Positions 31,865 to 37,975 of a stretch of 37,975 bases of DNA are shown piece by piece. Made by a program: the position numbers and the translations under genes. Positions within the stretch are counted from its first letter, which is position 1. Each line of letters starts with the position of its first letter. The DNA comes from a virus (lineage: Duplodnaviria > Heunggongvirae > Uroviricota > Caudoviricetes), in the IMG/VR virus record IMGVR_UViG_2534681604_000008, positions 1 through 37,975 of that record. One strand, written 5' to 3'. The notes beneath the pieces are model-generated. The model did not search any database and was not told the DNA's origin. It worked only from the letters and a program-made list of their open reading frames with translations.

Positions 31865-32350
31865 CTACCTGATATTACTGCTACTGTTGCATGTTACCGT
31901 GTTTCCAAATCCTGAATTGCAGTTTGTATATGTGTCAACGCGTGTTGGGTAAGGTTGAGTTATAACAGGCTGGCGCGCTTTTTGCTCGATCGCTTGCATT
32001 GTGTTTACAGCCTGATAATTCAATAAAGCCTGCTGGAATGCTTGGCTTTGTGCTATTTGTTGGGCTTGTTCTTGGCTTTGTAATTGAACATAAAGATTCT
32101 GAAGCTCAAGTCTTGCCTGTGCGTCACTTATCTTGCCTTCATCGACACCTTGCCCGAGCATCTTTGCAGCAAGGACATACAGCTTAGGTGTTGGTGCTGA
32201 TGCCATTCGTGAGTCGTTCTTCACACTGGCATCAAGGCAATTAGCCATATCGCTAAGCTTTTGATAGCGTTGTTCGCAACTTGCTTGATAGTCACTTACT
32301 TTTGCGCATCCAACCAGCAGAAGCGGGATAATTAACAGTGATTTTTTCAT
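31865..32350 (-). CDS. Lipoprotein at the sieA/immI position (candidate superinfection-exclusion factor)
   Basis: 161 aa from the internal ATG with AAGGAG RBS; signal peptide and lipobox MKKSLLIIPLLLVGC; Gln-rich coiled-coil middle; Cys-rich C-terminus; convergent with the late operon. Confidence 0.55.
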   Translation of the reverse strand: MKKSLLIIPLLLVGCAKVSDYQASCEQRYQKLSDMANCLDASVKNDSRMASAPTPKLYVLAAKMLGQGVDEGKISDAQARLELQNLYVQLQSQEQAQQIAQSQAFQQALLNYQAVNTMQAIEQKARQPVITQPYPTRVDTYTNCNSGFGNTVTCNSSSNIR

Positions 32351-32420
32351 ATGGTTAACTCTCCTTAGTTTTTCACAGGATATCATGAAGGCAATGCCAT
32401 TTTAGCCGGAAACTAGATTT

Positions 32421-32720
32421 CTATGTTTCCTTTTTATTATTGCTATACATGGTCTTAAGCGTATCAAAGACAATTTTCTTAACCATCTCAGATTGTTGTT
32501 CTGCCATACGCTCTGCATCGTCAATGTAAACTGATGCAGAGCTTTGTTTAGCCAATGATTCTTCAATCGCTGCAATTATCTCTGAGTTCAGCGACCTGTT
32601 ATTCATCTTCGCGCGCTGTTTAATTTTCGCGTGGAGTTCATGCGGAAGTCTCAAGTGAAACTGCGCCTCGTCGTATTTGCTGTACATCCTTGATGCCTCA
32701 CCAGTTGGGTGGAATGGCAT
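32421..32720 (-). CDS. mnt: Mnt/Arc-family ribbon-helix-helix repressor
   Basis: ...FHLRLPHELHAKIKQRAKMNNRSLNSEIIAAIEESL... and the C-terminus AERMAEQQSEMVKKIVFDTLK closely resemble P22 Mnt (recalled); start may be the internal Met at about 32687. Confidence 0.7.
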   Translation of the reverse strand: MPFHPTGEASRMYSKYDEAQFHLRLPHELHAKIKQRAKMNNRSLNSEIIAAIEESLAKQSSASVYIDDAERMAEQQSEMVKKIVFDTLKTMYSNNKKET

Positions 32721-32808
32721 CGTAACCTACTGGATAAATACTCAATAGTACCATTTCGGTATGCAATCACATCATGGTTGCATCATATCATTCGTCTGGA
32801 GCAATGAA

Positions 32809-35013
32809 ATGTCAGATATCACCGCAAATGTTGTGGTAAGCATGCCTTCGCAACTCTTCACTATGGCGCGTTCTTTTAAAGCCGTAGCCAATGGCAAAAT
32901 TTATATCGGGAAAATTGACACTGATCCGGTAAATCCTGAAAACCGGATTCAGGTTTATGTAGAGAACGAAGACGGCTCTCGCGTTCCTGTTTCGCAACCA
33001 ATCATCATTAACGCCGCTGGTTACCCTGTATATAACGGACAGATTGCCAAGTTCGTAACTGTGCAAGGCCATTCTATGGCTGTGTACGATGCGTATGGTT
33101 CTCAGCAGTTCTATTTTCCTAATGTGCTGAAGTATGACCCGGATCAGTTTCGCCAGCTTGTTGAAGGTAGCAATGGTGCTTATTATATTGGATATAATAA
33201 TACAAACGTTGGCGTATATCTAAATTCTTACGGAGTGGTAGTTACTCCTGGAGATGACCTGAAGGCCGCTCTGGAAAGTGCCAACAATGGTGATACGGTT
33301 ATCGTTTCGGGGGATGTGACACTAACTCAGCCTGTTGTCATTAGCAAAGCGGTTAACATTAAAAGAGTAAACGCCGGCCGTATACTATGGTCTGGAACAG
33401 GCGCGGCAATCAGATATATTCTTGCAGTTAAAAATACTATTACCACCCCAACACAATTCTTACGTAGTCAAAATACAGCAACATTACCAGAGGGTCACGG
33501 TGTGGTCGTGGGGGATATGCTGGAACTCCATTCTACACAAGTCAGATACGCCGACGTCGATGGAGATTACACTTTCGGACAGTTTATTTACGTCGAAAAA
33601 GTGGATGGCAACACGATCACATTCCAGCCAAGTATGACTACCGGATTTACAACCTCAGAGATTATTGTATCGAACTCGTTAGAAGGCATGCAATTCGATG
33701 TAGAGATTATCAATATCAAACCGGCAACAGGCTCTGCTAACGGCATCCTTCTTGATATTCATGGCGCTCGCAATCTTACAGGGAAATTTCGCATTATTGG
33801 GAATGGTGATGAAAACTATGGCTTGGCCTTACAAGGCTATCACTGCAAACTTGATGTTGATGTGTGGAACATCAAATCTGGAAATTTCTCAGTTCCTGGT
33901 TACGGATTTAACTGTGTAGGCGATAGTATATATGTCAATCTGTCAGGTGGTAATTGCCGTCATGTGGGTGAGATTCCCGCAAGGAATGTGGTAAGTAATG
34001 ATATTCATTTCCACTGTAATATCACTAAGACGTTGGGCACTCCGTTATATATTTATAACGTAGGCTGGCACTCAAATGTAATTTATGCAAAGTTAACTGG
34101 TACTATTTCCGGTTCTGGCATGCTTGTTGCTGTGCGCTCTGGCTCCGGGGAAGTTAGTATGGAGTTCAACGGCGCTGACGACGGTTATGACTATGCCGAT
34201 ATCGTTGTAGGAGATATCTACCCAACATCTTTAAAGATCACCAAATGCAACTCTGGTGGCGTGAACGCACGTCGCTCTTTCATCCAGTGGAACGTCAAGG
34301 GACAGGGATCAAACTCAGGTGGATTGATTTTAGATAATAACACCTTCGTCGGGCCAAAGCGCATGATGCGCTTGTACGATGACTCTGGGGCAACGAGCAA
34401 GGCATTCCGAGTATACGCTTCCAATAACAAGGGTTCAGTAGTGGCTATCCACAACCGCGACCTTCTCAACGCCAACGTATACATCGAGCTGTCTAACAAC
34501 ACGTTGACATCATATGGCCTGGCTACATTCGCTGATTACATGGCCGGTGTTGATACAAACGGATGTAAAACATATGAAGTAAGGTCTACTAACAATAACA
34601 TTGACGATTCGGTAACAGCGGGTGTCTTTTCCTTCGATGGTTATATGGATGCGATAGTATTTAGTAGCCATGGAGACAAGAATTCAAACAGACCATTCAT
34701 AAAGCTTACGCCTACATATCTCGGCCGAGTTGATAGGTTTGATATTAACGGGCTTAATACTAATGGACGAATGACACTTACACCAACGGCGGCAACTGTG
34801 TATAACGATATAGGGCAGATTAGATTTTGTCGTATCGGCTTTGACTCTAATCAACCAATAGTAGTCGGCTTGTCTTGGCCTATCGTCTACACTGGAAATT
34901 CTTTCAAAACTACACTTGATGCCACACTTGTTAGTACAAAGCGACCTCAAGCTGGTAATGTCAACCTTTCAGGGAAAGCATTAAACTGGAATGGTACAAA
35001 TATTGCCATTTGA
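32809..35013 (+). CDS. Tailspike: P22-type N-terminal head-binding domain fused to a divergent receptor-binding domain
   Basis: N-terminus [56 protein letters not shown]... matches the P22 gp9 head-binding domain (recalled); the remaining ~600 aa are Gly/Asn/Thr/Val-rich, beta-helix-like, and unlike P22. GGAG RBS. 734 aa. Confidence 0.85.
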
Positions 35014-35017
35014 ATAT

Positions 35018-35045
35018 TTAGGCGGCCTTTGCCGCCTTTTTTTAT
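35018..35045 (+). terminator. Intrinsic terminator between convergent tailspike and gtrC
   Basis: AGGCGGC-CTTT-GCCGCCT stem-loop followed by TTTTTTTATTT. Confidence 0.55.
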
Positions 35046-36700
35046 TTATAATGGGAGTATAATTCTTGATAGAATACTTCTTTTGCGATTTTATGGTTGT
35101 TTTCTGTTTTATCACCTGTAACAGATAATGCGTAATAATCACCAACCTTTTCAATCATGTATTTATTCGAGATGTTCTTGATAGCATGATCTAAAGTCCA
35201 TTTATCTTTGAATAAATACAAAGTTGAAGTATCATAAGCACCATTGTATAAATTAAAGAAGATGGATTTTTGTTGTTGTATCTTTGCATTCAAGCTGAAT
35301 CTTGCCATATAACCAAAATTCATTGATGCTTTATTTTTTGAAGCTATATAACCTATGTTTGACCAATCAAAATAAAAATCAATAGGCATCACAACCTGTA
35401 TTTTATCTTTGTTAGACATCAACGCATTAATATTGGTGTTATCCAAGCCCTTTGATATGTCTGTTATTTCTGAATATCTTTCATGTACTTTTGTAATCAT
35501 TCCATGAATATCATAAAGTTGCACGGCACAAGAAATTGCAACTATGGACAAGCAAAGCGCACGATTAAGATAGTGTCTAATGTAAATAATAAAAAAAGCC
35601 AAAGAAGCATAAATAAAGACCCAAATAAATCTACCTGAAGATCTAAAGATATTTACTGCTTTAGATACAACGCTCGGTAAATTAATGCTGAGAACATTAT
35701 TCCCATTAAAAGAGATGTTGTTTGAAATAGCGAATAGCAAAATCAAGAGACACATAACAAATCCTGGTATGCACCCCTTTCCAAAGCCTCTGTATATTGA
35801 AAAGCAGGCCACACCAACTAATAATACAATGACAACACCTGTGCCGAGATACGCAAAACCCTCATAGTCCAGTTTTTGGTGTGGCAAAGGATTTGTAAAG
35901 TTTGACACCCATGAATACATGGGGTTTATGAAAGCATTAAGATCCATGTGATACAATCCGAAACCACTACCATCAGCTCCATCGGCAATCACAAAATATC
36001 CAAGCGCATACATTGTTCCAGCCAGTGCAAGCATGGCAACAATAAATAATGAGGCCGCGCTGGCTATTGTTTTTTCTTTTTTTATTATCGACGTAGCAAG
36101 ATAAGCAACAAAAACAGAAAGTATCATTCCTGTGATGTAGAAGTGAATGGCAGAACTTATCGCTATCAGTAGCACCCACCTTTTATTGGAATTCTTCATA
36201 CTATAAAGAATGAAAGAGGCAATAATAAGAAAGTGTGCCGACAAAGCAAAGTGGCCCATCATTCTGAAAAGCATAATGGGAGCCAAGCAGAACAGCGCGG
36301 AGGCCACTAAAGAGTAAGGCTTATCATGCGTATTTCTATTTATTAGGTCATATGAAAATACGCCTTGCAGAATACAGCACAGTAATATCCATATACCTGT
36401 GTATTGGAATGTATCTGGAAGAGCGAAAGATACAAATTTGAAAATAATTGCCAGTAAGGGTATGGAGTCAGTAAATACTATTGAGCTACTAACCTCCATT
36501 CCATATGGTTCATTTAAACCAAGCGGCCACTGCAGTATCGGAGTGTTTCTAAAAAAATTCCATCCAAGCCAATGTTGCGCAGCATCTCCACTGCCAAACC
36601 ACTGAATGTTTGTTACATTCAAAATATTCATGCCGCCGCAAGCTATGAATATAAGAAAACCAATCAGTCCAGCTGCGATACGGTAATAGTTATTTTTCAT
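35042..36700 (-). CDS. gtrC: Serotype-specific O-antigen glucosyltransferase (GtrC-type polytopic membrane protein)
   Basis: 552 aa with many hydrophobic helices, visibly AT-rich, third gene of a gtrA-gtrB-gtr(type) operon. Confidence 0.7.
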
Positions 36701-37616
36701 TTTTGTTACCCTTTAACAGGTAGCGAGGCCGACCTTTGCTTTCGATGTAAATCCTTCCGATATACTCACCGAGCACACCAATACCGATAAGTTGCACGCC
36801 TCCAAGGAAGAGGATGGATACAATTAAAGAAGGATATCCTCGAACAGCGTTACCAAACGCCAGCGTGTCTACAATCATCCATGCTCCGTAGATGAATGCG
36901 AGGCCTGCAACAACAAGCCCGATATAGGTCCACATGCGCAGCGGTAAGGTAGAGAAGCTGGTGATACCCTCAAGAGCAAGGTTCCATAACTTCCAACCAT
37001 TAAATTTTGTACTGCCTGCAACGCGTTCAGCGCGGGCATATTCAACAACATCCGTGCGACCACCAACCCAACTCAGAACCCCCTTCATGAAGAGGTTTCT
37101 CTCTGGCATGAGCTTAATGTTTTCCACCACCTCGCGAGACATCAAACGGAAGTCGCCAACGTTTTCCTCGATCTGCGGGTTGCTGATTTTGTTGTGCAGC
37201 TTATAGAACCACTCTGCAGTCTTACGCTTCAGCCTTCCATCGGTGGAGCGGTCAGAGCGCTTGGCCAGTACCATATCAGCACCTGCCTGCCACTTTTCAA
37301 TAAGATGAGGAATAACCTCAATCGGGTCTTGCAGGTCAACATCAATTGGGATTATCGCATCCCCGGTTGCATGGTCTAACCCTGCAAACAATGCGGGTTC
37401 TTTACCAAAGTTTCGTGTAAATGACAGCGGAACCACTAGAGGATCTGAAACAGCCAGAGCATTAATAATTGACTCCGTAGCGTCTTTGCTACCGTCATTT
37501 ATGAAAACAATTTCCACTTCATATGGCTTCAACTCTTCGAATTCTCGTACCGTTTTATAAAAAATTGGTATCGCTTCTTCTTCATTGAAGACAGGAACTA
37601 CAAGAGATATCTTCAT
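36690..37616 (-). CDS. gtrB: Bactoprenol glucosyltransferase GtrB (GT2 family)
   Basis: 308 aa; GT2 motifs ([23 protein letters not shown]) and two C-terminal TM helices. Confidence 0.9.
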
Positions 37617-37975
37617 TTCGCATCCCTAAAGACAATGAACTTTGAATAGACGAAACCGCACACCAGGCTGATGGCGGAGAAGATGACAAGAGTGACAATT
37701 GGAGGAAGTGAACATCTATCAGCAGCCCATCCAACAGTTGCACTCAGTGTTCCCATGAACCCGACATATAACATGTAGCGCATCGTTGTAGTTGATGCTT
37801 TGAATGTGAATTTTGCATTCGCGAAGAAGCTAAAACTCACAGCCACAACAAAACCTGCGAAGTTTGCCAGAGCCTGATTGGTATGCGCGGCATAGATACA
37901 AACACCAAAAACCACCCAGTGTATAAGGGTGTTCAGCACACCAATAGAGGTGTACTTTGCAAATAGCTTTAACAT
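37613..37975 (-). CDS. gtrA: GtrA flippase subunit
   Basis: 120 aa, four hydrophobic helices, GtrA-like; start codon at the window edge. Confidence 0.8.

Follow-up and report, generated by a model that had tools for sequence, protein, structure and literature searches.

The window analysed here, i.e., the whole stretch of 37,975 nucleotides, is 100% identical to sequence of Escherichia fergusonii B253, and the backbone of the prophage has 97% identity to Sf6 and HK620. Positions 32809-37975 are the ordinary right-hand end of this P22/Sf6-like E. fergusonii prophage (a temperate podovirus) and contain a tailspike gene and three gtr genes, all four ORFs being intact and of full length (Table 1). 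As the first-pass annotation had proposed, gtrA, gtrB, and gtrC form an operon convergent to the tailspike gene; they are read from the minus strand, the tailspike from the plus strand, and their reading frames overlap at the start and stop codons. The stop codons of the tailspike and gtrC are 28 nt apart, and the putative terminator hairpin between them has a 7-bp stem with six GC pairs and is flanked by T7 on the plus strand and by A7 on its other side. The start codon of gtrA is the final triplet of the window. Systems of this kind are already known and the layout is ordinary; judged by sequence comparison, it is the receptor-binding domain (RBD) of the tailspike and GtrC that are untyped members.

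Table 1. Features of the tailspike-gtr region (positions in the window)
Feature	Position	Strand	Evidence or remark
Tailspike ORF, 734 aa	32809-35013	+	GGAG ribosome-binding site 9 nt 5' of start
Head-binding (particle-attachment) domain, aa 1-113	32809-33147	+	Pfam PF09008 Head_binding, E 4e-66
Neck/linker, aa ~114-146	33148-33246	+	Exchange zone between attachment domain and RBD; weak similarity to E. kobei spikes
RBD, aa 147-734, right-handed beta-helix, putative polysaccharide depolymerase	33247-35013	+	Fold similarity
Putative bidirectional terminator hairpin, shared	35020-35037	.	AGGCGGC-CTTT-GCCGCCT between the convergent stops
gtrC, 552 aa, DUF6311 polytopic membrane protein, putative serotype-specific transferase	35042-36700	-	35.6% GC, GT-C fold model
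gtrB, 308 aa, GT2 bactoprenol (Und-P) glucosyltransferase	36690-37616	-	PF00535, phrog_34335/841
gtrA, 120 aa, small membrane protein, putative Und-P-glucose flippase	37613-37975	-	PF04138, phrog_2224

Two structural features expected of a P22-like tailspike, an N-terminal PF09008 domain and a C-terminal right-handed parallel beta-helix domain for receptor binding or depolymerisation, are both present, the former within an Sf6-like virion gene set. Residues 1-121 align with the N-termini of Sf6 gp14 and of the P22 tailspike (E 1e-63 to 1e-44, with 1e-63 for Sf6 gp14), in agreement with the P22-type head-binding N-terminus claimed in the first-pass annotation. The head-binding domain is 94-95% identical to that of other Escherichia P22-like tailspikes and is followed by a conserved YDPDQF junction, which is included in the near identity to Sf6 gp14 over residues 1-115. 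Domains of this family dock on the gp4/gp10 tail hub. Beyond residue ~121, however, the protein has no sequence similarity to Sf6 gp14, P22 gp9, or the HK620 tailspike, and no solved tailspike was matched there in a PDB sequence search, which bears out the further claim that an unrelated, beta-helix-like C-terminal domain had been swapped in. Within the RBD, the C-terminal ~60 aa are strongly conserved and a variable patch lies at approximately aa 440-600.

Apart from the head-binding domain and GtrA/GtrB, searches of NCBIfam, PHROGs, and PDB sequences were empty for both the RBD and GtrC, and neither had a tblastn match in 50,697 INPHARED phage records, a collection that includes Hf4s. Among 5,426 complete E. 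coli genomes (megablast and distant blastn), the RBD gave a single partial match of 72% and gtrC was absent, an outcome explained by E. fergusonii being the source. A study of tailspike modularity (PMC10408124) is silent on both gtr genes and this spike. As far as sequence comparison goes, the RBD is uncharacterised, and it is swapped relative to P22, Sf6, and HK620.

The first two genes of the operon conform to the GtrABC scheme. GtrA, encoded first, is a small membrane protein of the GtrA/DPMS family with 91% aa identity to SfV GtrA, and GtrB is a predicted GT2 Und-P-glucose synthase with 90% aa identity to SfV GtrB and an E value of 5e-89 to 5EKP, the structure of a GtrB from Synechocystis. 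Given identities of 90-91% to the SfV proteins, Und-P-glucose is the probable sugar donor. GtrC is a member of Pfam DUF6311 (PF19830; 215 bits against a gathering cutoff of 27), and PF25853 (DUF6311_C), a C-terminal alpha/beta domain, is listed for the representative of its cluster. The fold of its model is of the GT-C glycosyltransferase type, as would be expected of the polytopic transferase encoded by the third gene of such an operon, with arabinofuranosyl- and mannosyl-transferases as the closest solved folds. [quoted passage not shown] The multi-helix membrane core and the periplasmic loop after TM1 with an invariant Asp are shared with AftA, ArnT, PglB/STT3, PMTs, ALG9/12, and GT136 ORF12 of Citrobacter youngae; however, the identity of these transferases to GtrC is only 7-13%, and PF25853 is a C-terminal domain of GtrC's own.

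Comparison with typed GtrC families revealed no detectable sequence or profile similarity. The profile comparison covered the SfV, P22-type, and Hf4s-type phage proteins, and hhalign probabilities were 0.1-0.8% against SfV GtrV, the P22-type GtrC of SPN9CC, and Hf4s GtrC. The Pfam assignments also differ: P22-type GtrC is PF14264 (Glucos_trans_II), Hf4s GtrC (410 aa, epsilon34-related) is DUF6056, and there is no assignment for SfV GtrV. No PHROG matched GtrC, a Foldseek search of its model against the viral structures of BFVD gave nothing convincing (best E 2.6e-3, TM 0.37), and none of the papers searched names DUF6311; DUF6311 is a GT-C family without a characterised representative. The first-pass annotation would have been refuted by identity to an already typed pair. 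No such identity was seen, either for the two proteins by tblastn in the phage records above or for GtrC by hhalign (below 1%). Its view of GtrC as the variable, specificity-determining component is supported, and the pair may define the new conversion and receptor specificity that it suggested.

The family assignment could also be read in another way, namely that the DUF6311 transferase acts on other substrates, either transferring a non-glucose sugar or modifying ECA, capsule, or the LPS core, so that the receptor of the tailspike would be left unmodified. DUF6311 is common outside phages (Paraburkholderia, Cupriavidus, Pantoea, and Serratia), its nearest solved folds are the arabinofuranosyl- and mannosyl-transferases just mentioned, and it lacks similarity to typed GtrCs. 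On the other hand, GtrB and GtrA are close relatives of the glucose-specific SfV proteins, gtrB overlaps gtrC in one operon, the DUF6311 gene lies exactly where P22-like and Shigella phages have gtrC, and it is consistently paired with one family of tailspike RBDs. We therefore regard this alternative as unlikely. In favour of the glucosylation reading, GtrA-DUF6311 fusion proteins also exist (P0098 and P0128).

The same gene order with overlapping ORFs is known from the gtrABC cassettes of the Shigella phages SfI, SfII, SfIV, SfV, and SfX and of the Salmonella phage P22, in which the third gene is likewise AT-rich and variable and the cassette likewise lies at the prophage end beside a tail fibre or tailspike gene. 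An AT-rich gtrABC cassette of separate horizontal origin had been suggested for the present prophage. The description proved right for gtrC, which at 35.6% GC is lower than any other stretch of 1659 nt in the window, about 5 SD under the phage mean of 47.4 ± 2.4%, but not for gtrB (46.2%) and gtrA (44.4%), which are ordinary for this phage. Typed gtrC genes are also low in GC (33% in SfV, 32% in P22-type, and 38% in Hf4s cassettes). Low GC as a sign of separate origin for the whole operon was therefore rejected, because it is limited to gtrC and generic in typed cassettes.

Separate import of the gtr operon and the tailspike was likewise contradicted by the homology with Enterobacter prophages. 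The RBD and gtrCBA (33247-37975) match loci L006, L008, and L009 of Enterobacter kobei in one contiguous stretch at 86% nucleotide identity, the protein identities being 93% for the RBD, 88% for GtrC, and 96% for GtrB. In the alignment, high identity to the E. kobei spikes begins at PGDDLK (aa 147), after a weakly similar neck. Those E. kobei prophages are long-tailed, with genes for J-like central tail fibres and spikes whose N-termini are PF18668. From these alignments, the RBD and gtrCBA have a common rather than a separate history; as they form a single homology block of 4.7 kb, the receptor-binding and receptor-modifying halves seem to be passed on and exchanged as a unit, crossing over in the neck of the tailspike near codon 147.

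In all gtr-bearing loci examined (L001/L002, L003/L004, L006-L008, L010-L012, L017, L018, and L020), the neighbour of a DUF6311 gtrC is an RBD relative of at least 60% identity. For two further proteins, P0002 and P0034, the reported contigs are equal in length (10,490 nt). Assemblies with this RBD family are E. fergusonii B253, E. coli GCA_047444365.1 and GCA_044046205.1, an E. coli O79:H40 record, and E. kobei GCA_002494045.1, GCA_027267755.1, and GCA_024895335.1. The linkage is not absolute: in L013 a 50%-identical RBD adjoins an acyltransferase-3 gene instead of gtrC, and in L015 a 66%-identical RBD lies in a P2-like baseplate with gtr genes absent from view. Moreover, RBD and GtrC identities do not run in parallel in some loci (RBD 85% and GtrC 51% in L003; RBD 60% and GtrC 95% in L010), a pattern of recombination within the pair as well. 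A tentative, though quite plausible, proposal is that the RBD and the DUF6311 GtrC constitute a co-transferred cassette of ~4.7 kb for reading and rewriting the receptor, which would move by neck crossover between tail types (P22-like podovirus and long-tailed J-fibre phages) and genera (Escherichia and Enterobacter), and that DUF6311 would be a new class of serotype-converting GT-C enzymes installing an undescribed O-antigen modification.

The linkage also bears on the receptor. Because the best structural matches of the RBD are capsule depolymerases and lyases, the target could be a capsule or another exopolysaccharide, in which case the adjacency to gtrABC would merely reflect the fixed gene order of P22-like phages, in all of which the tailspike is followed by gtr genes whatever the specificity. 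However, beta-helix similarity at 13-14% identity to solved enzymes cannot discriminate between substrates and is too low for placing catalytic residues. Gene order would also not predict that this RBD family and a DUF6311 gtrC are neighbours at several chromosomal sites and in an Enterobacter prophage that is long-tailed and not of the P22 type. The characterised tailspikes of P22-like phages (P22, Sf6, HK620, and Hf4s) use the O-antigen as receptor, and a capsule target is accordingly considered improbable.

Very probably, then, the locus is a standard prophage end for receptor recognition and receptor modification, in which the tailspike would read a surface polysaccharide that gtrABC alters in the lysogen. 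The conserved head-binding domain would fix the tailspike to an Sf6-type tail, and the beta-helix would bind, and probably cleave, a polysaccharide of the host surface, most likely the O-antigen. In the lysogen, GtrB would convert UDP-glucose to Und-P-glucose, which GtrA would flip into the periplasm, and GtrC would then move the glucose onto a defined position of the O-unit. With its receptor so altered, the lysogen would be closed to superinfection by this and other phages of the same specificity. The general mechanism is established (PMC7685785, PMC11194591). A close parallel is the Lederbergvirus Hf4s, which has the same genus-level backbone, a head-binding N-terminus on a foreign RBD, and a convergent gtrC-gtrB-gtrA operon, but a GtrC of a different family; in the Hf4s paper, lysogens lose phage adsorption and O-seroconversion is reported.

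A third possibility is that the cassette is an inactive remnant of a decaying prophage without present function. In B253, the integrase gene adjoining gtrA is cut down to its final 26 codons, so that the prophage may not be inducible, though without effect on gtr expression; in addition, the related loci L010-L012 are reduced to prophage remnants of mnt, tailspike, and gtr genes alone. Nevertheless, an inactive cassette is very improbable: all four ORFs are intact, the tailspike as well as a GtrC that clusters with this one at 90% identity recur in several E. fergusonii assemblies, and the gtrCBA genes of an independent E. coli prophage have a nucleotide identity of ~100%. Where remnants keep their gtr genes, e.g., yfdGHI in CPS-53 of E. 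coli K-12, this is usually taken as selection for the conversion function.

Tailspike/gtr pairs of prophages determine the range of strains open to a phage and the O-serotype shown by the lysogen. No established concept is changed by the present locus, as RBD swaps at the head-binding junction, GtrC diversity, and low-GC gtrC genes are all well documented. However, a DUF6311 protein in the gtrC slot, as a predicted GT-C transferase, suggests a testable function for a domain of unknown function with hundreds of members in Enterobacterales and Burkholderiales. The block shared with E. kobei is a clean case of recognition and modification modules that appear to travel together across tail types and genera, which bears on host-range prediction and on genome-based serotype prediction. 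As to phase-variation signals (Dam/OxyR), only three scattered GATC sites are present upstream of gtrA, beyond the window.

The end of this Escherichia fergusonii prophage joins a tailspike with an untyped receptor-binding domain (RBD) to a GtrC of an uncharacterised GT-C family (DUF6311), and these two parts, with the evidence for their joint transfer, are what is new here. The first-pass annotation, a swapped RBD beside an AT-rich gtrABC cassette, was a real observation and its reading was right in outline; the layout it described is how P22-like prophages are canonically organised. Four genes (tailspike, gtrC, gtrB and gtrA) are present, all of them intact. An alternative tailspike start, the ATG at 32761, would add 16 residues that are absent from all homologues. 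The overlaps between the gtr ORFs (11 and 4 nt) fit the expectation for a single translationally coupled operon. The stop codons of tailspike and gtrC are separated by 28 nt, and the T and A runs flanking the hairpin between them suggest that it is probably a terminator shared by both genes.

Features at the prophage end (positions in the window)
Feature	Position	Strand	Product or extent	GC (%)	Remark
Lipoprotein-type ORF	31865-32386	-	173 aa (or 161 aa)		Lipoprotein-type signal
Mnt/Arc-type repressor gene	32421-32720	-			Upstream of tailspike
Tailspike ORF	32809-35013	+	734 aa		GGAG 9 nt ahead of ATG
RBD	33247-35013	+	aa 147-734	43.4	
Variable beta-helix body stretch	34200-34650		about 450 nt, about aa 440-600		
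GC-rich hairpin	35020-35037		7 bp		Between tailspike and gtrC stops; T7 run on one side, A7 on the other
gtrC	35042-36700	-	552 aa	35.6	
gtrB	36690-37616	-	308 aa	46.2	
gtrA	37613-37975	-	120 aa	44.4	

Residues 1-113 of the tailspike matched the Pfam Head_binding family (E 4e-66), and the N-terminus could be aligned position by position to Sf6 gp14 and P22 gp9 as far as the YDPDQF motif. Past residue ~121, no solved tailspike, Pfam family or phage record (n=50,697) was matched. Together these results bear out the description of a P22-type head-binding N-terminus carrying an unrelated beta-helix C-terminus. The RBD was most variable at residues ~440-600 in all comparisons, and its C-terminal ~60 residues were almost invariant.

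Comparison with related loci was the most informative part of the analysis, providing evidence that this RBD and the DUF6311 GtrC move as a pair between phages of different tail types and between genera. The window from 33247 to 37975 gave a single contiguous blastn match, at 86% identity, in E. kobei prophages at two different chromosomal sites (loci L006/L008 and L009). The block runs from tailspike codon 147 through the RBD, terminator, gtrC, gtrB and gtrA, with 96% identity between the GtrB proteins. The E. kobei prophages bearing it are not P22-like: they encode minor tail proteins together with a J-like central tail fibre, and their spikes have a PF18668 N-terminus where the window has the head-binding domain. 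Between the two kinds of spike, similarity is weak throughout the linker (aa 114-146) and identity jumps at PGDDLK; the crossover position is the tailspike neck. This non-P22 Enterobacter context counts against the alternative that the spike targets capsule and that the tailspike-gtr adjacency is merely a fixed gene order, which is considered unlikely.

Relatives of the window RBD and GtrC (identities to the window proteins)
Locus	Context	RBD	GtrC
L001	E. coli P22-like prophage, yfdC/int site	92%	100%
L006, L008	E. kobei long-tailed prophage	93%	88%
L003	E. kobei long-tailed prophage	85%	51%
L010-L012	E. coli P22-like remnant	60%	95%
L013	E. coli P22-like prophage	50%	none; acyltransferase-3 gene in place
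L015	P2-like baseplate	66%	none; no gtr genes in view

The RBD family was thus paired with a DUF6311 GtrC in every gtr-bearing locus read. The pairing is neither obligatory nor without internal recombination. The tailspike body of L001 (E. coli GCA_047444365.1) is a mosaic relative to the window, at 67-100% identity per 150 nt. Its variable body stretch shows 67-77% nucleotide identity, surrounded by a near-identical prophage end (gtrCBA and tailspike 3' end ~100%); this stretch is an intragenic mosaic patch, and in comparisons to the Enterobacter spikes, too, no other segment varies as much. The L015 copy (Logan ERR7162889 contig) lies within a 791-aa protein of a contractile-tail phage, directly following the P2-type baseplate genes gpV, W, J and I, which indicates that the RBD family serves podo-, sipho- and myovirus-type tails. 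The L010-L012 remnants, near a ybhC-like pectinesterase and a lambda-type int, retain only mnt, the head-binding tailspike and DUF6311 gtrCBA (gtrA being absent from L011 and L012), with an IS605/TnpB element nearby. In L013/L014 (7255-8297; E. coli P22-like prophages, RBD 50%), the acyltransferase-3 (Oac-like) gene in the gtr slot is split in the gene calls into ORFs of 221 and 132 aa and is therefore possibly frameshifted.

The AT-richness attributed to the whole cassette held for gtrC but not for gtrB and gtrA. gtrC is the lowest-GC 1659-nt stretch in the entire window, ~5 SD below the mean of the remaining phage (47.4 +/- 2.4% in 1659-nt windows). A low-GC gtrC also adjoins normal gtrA/gtrB in SfV (33.3%), a P22-type cassette (32.0%), Hf4s (38.0%) and the Enterobacter and E. 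coli relatives (34.6-37.4%). Low GC is a generic trait of the variable third gtr gene and not specific to this locus.

GtrC belongs to Pfam DUF6311 (215 bits) and carries the DUF6311_C domain as well. Sequence searches of PHROG, NCBIfam and PDB gave no match, nor did tblastn of the phage collection (50,697 records), and no mention of DUF6311 was found in the literature searched. Profile comparison gave probabilities <1% against SfV GtrV, P22-type GtrC (PF14264) and Hf4s/epsilon34-type GtrC (DUF6056); at profile level it is unlike these typed GtrCs. A structure model built from 64 sequences was confident (pLDDT 92.8, pTM 0.91). Residues invariant in 64 homologues (identity down to 27%) include D39, D78-S79, K88, R353 and R357, of which D39 and D78-S79 lie between TM1 and the following long membrane helix; the catalytic base proposed for several solved GT-C structures is an Asp that follows TM1 (PMC11127046). 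Two distant DUF6311 proteins (P0098, P0128) are fused to a GtrA domain, independently supporting a functional link between DUF6311 and GtrA. The GtrA domain (PF04138) is N-terminal in such natural GtrA-GtrC fusions, e.g., in Arvimicrobium flavum.

GtrA (PF04138) shares 91% and GtrB (GT2) 90% identity with its SfV counterpart, and GtrB matched the solved Synechocystis GtrB (E 5e-89). This homology makes Und-P-glucose, whose pathway is established (PMC7685785, PMC11194591), the most likely sugar donor. That GtrC works with a different sugar or acceptor glycan is also unlikely, if slightly less so than the capsule alternative, and a dead remnant is very improbable, the ORFs being intact and conserved. 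The classical reading, a spike reading O-antigen and a lysogen altering that receptor, has the best support and is considered quite probable: the tailspike would dock on an Sf6-type tail and bind, and probably cleave, host O-antigen, and in the lysogen GtrB, GtrA and GtrC would attach a glucose branch to it. Receptor alteration in the lysogen has been reported for Hf4s, whose architecture is identical to this tailspike-gtr end.

Among 5,426 complete E. coli genomes, gtrC was not found and the RBD gave one partial 72% hit only. The flanks (head-binding segment, gtrB/gtrA) were matched in >1,600 of them, which have many other sequences in between, bearing annotations as DUF6056, glucosyltransferase domain or YfdI; conserved ends around a highly variable RBD-gtrC core are a known pattern. 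Members of the 90%-identity cluster of this GtrC are present in E. fergusonii, E. kobei, E. mori and a small number of E. coli, among them a record labelled O79:H40.

The final 15,167 nt of the window matched scaffold GL870856.1 of E. fergusonii B253 (GCA_000190495.1) with 0 mismatches (tailspike EGC08083.1, GtrC EGC08084.1), and along its backbone the prophage shares 97% identity with Sf6, HK620 and their Lederbergvirus relatives. In L001 a P4-type integrase, unmatched anywhere within the window, adjoins gtrA; B253 keeps only its final 26 codons (L017 15297-15378, just past window position 37975). Homology to L001 ends at this remnant, with the host gene sbmC ~600 nt further. The B253 prophage may be incapable of excision.

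The lipoprotein-type ORF (MKKSLLIIPLLLVGC) occupies the interval from the gp16 homologue to mnt, the location of sieA in P22. Its sole match was phrog_6067, a PHROG of unknown function, and it is possibly a superinfection-exclusion or moron lipoprotein.
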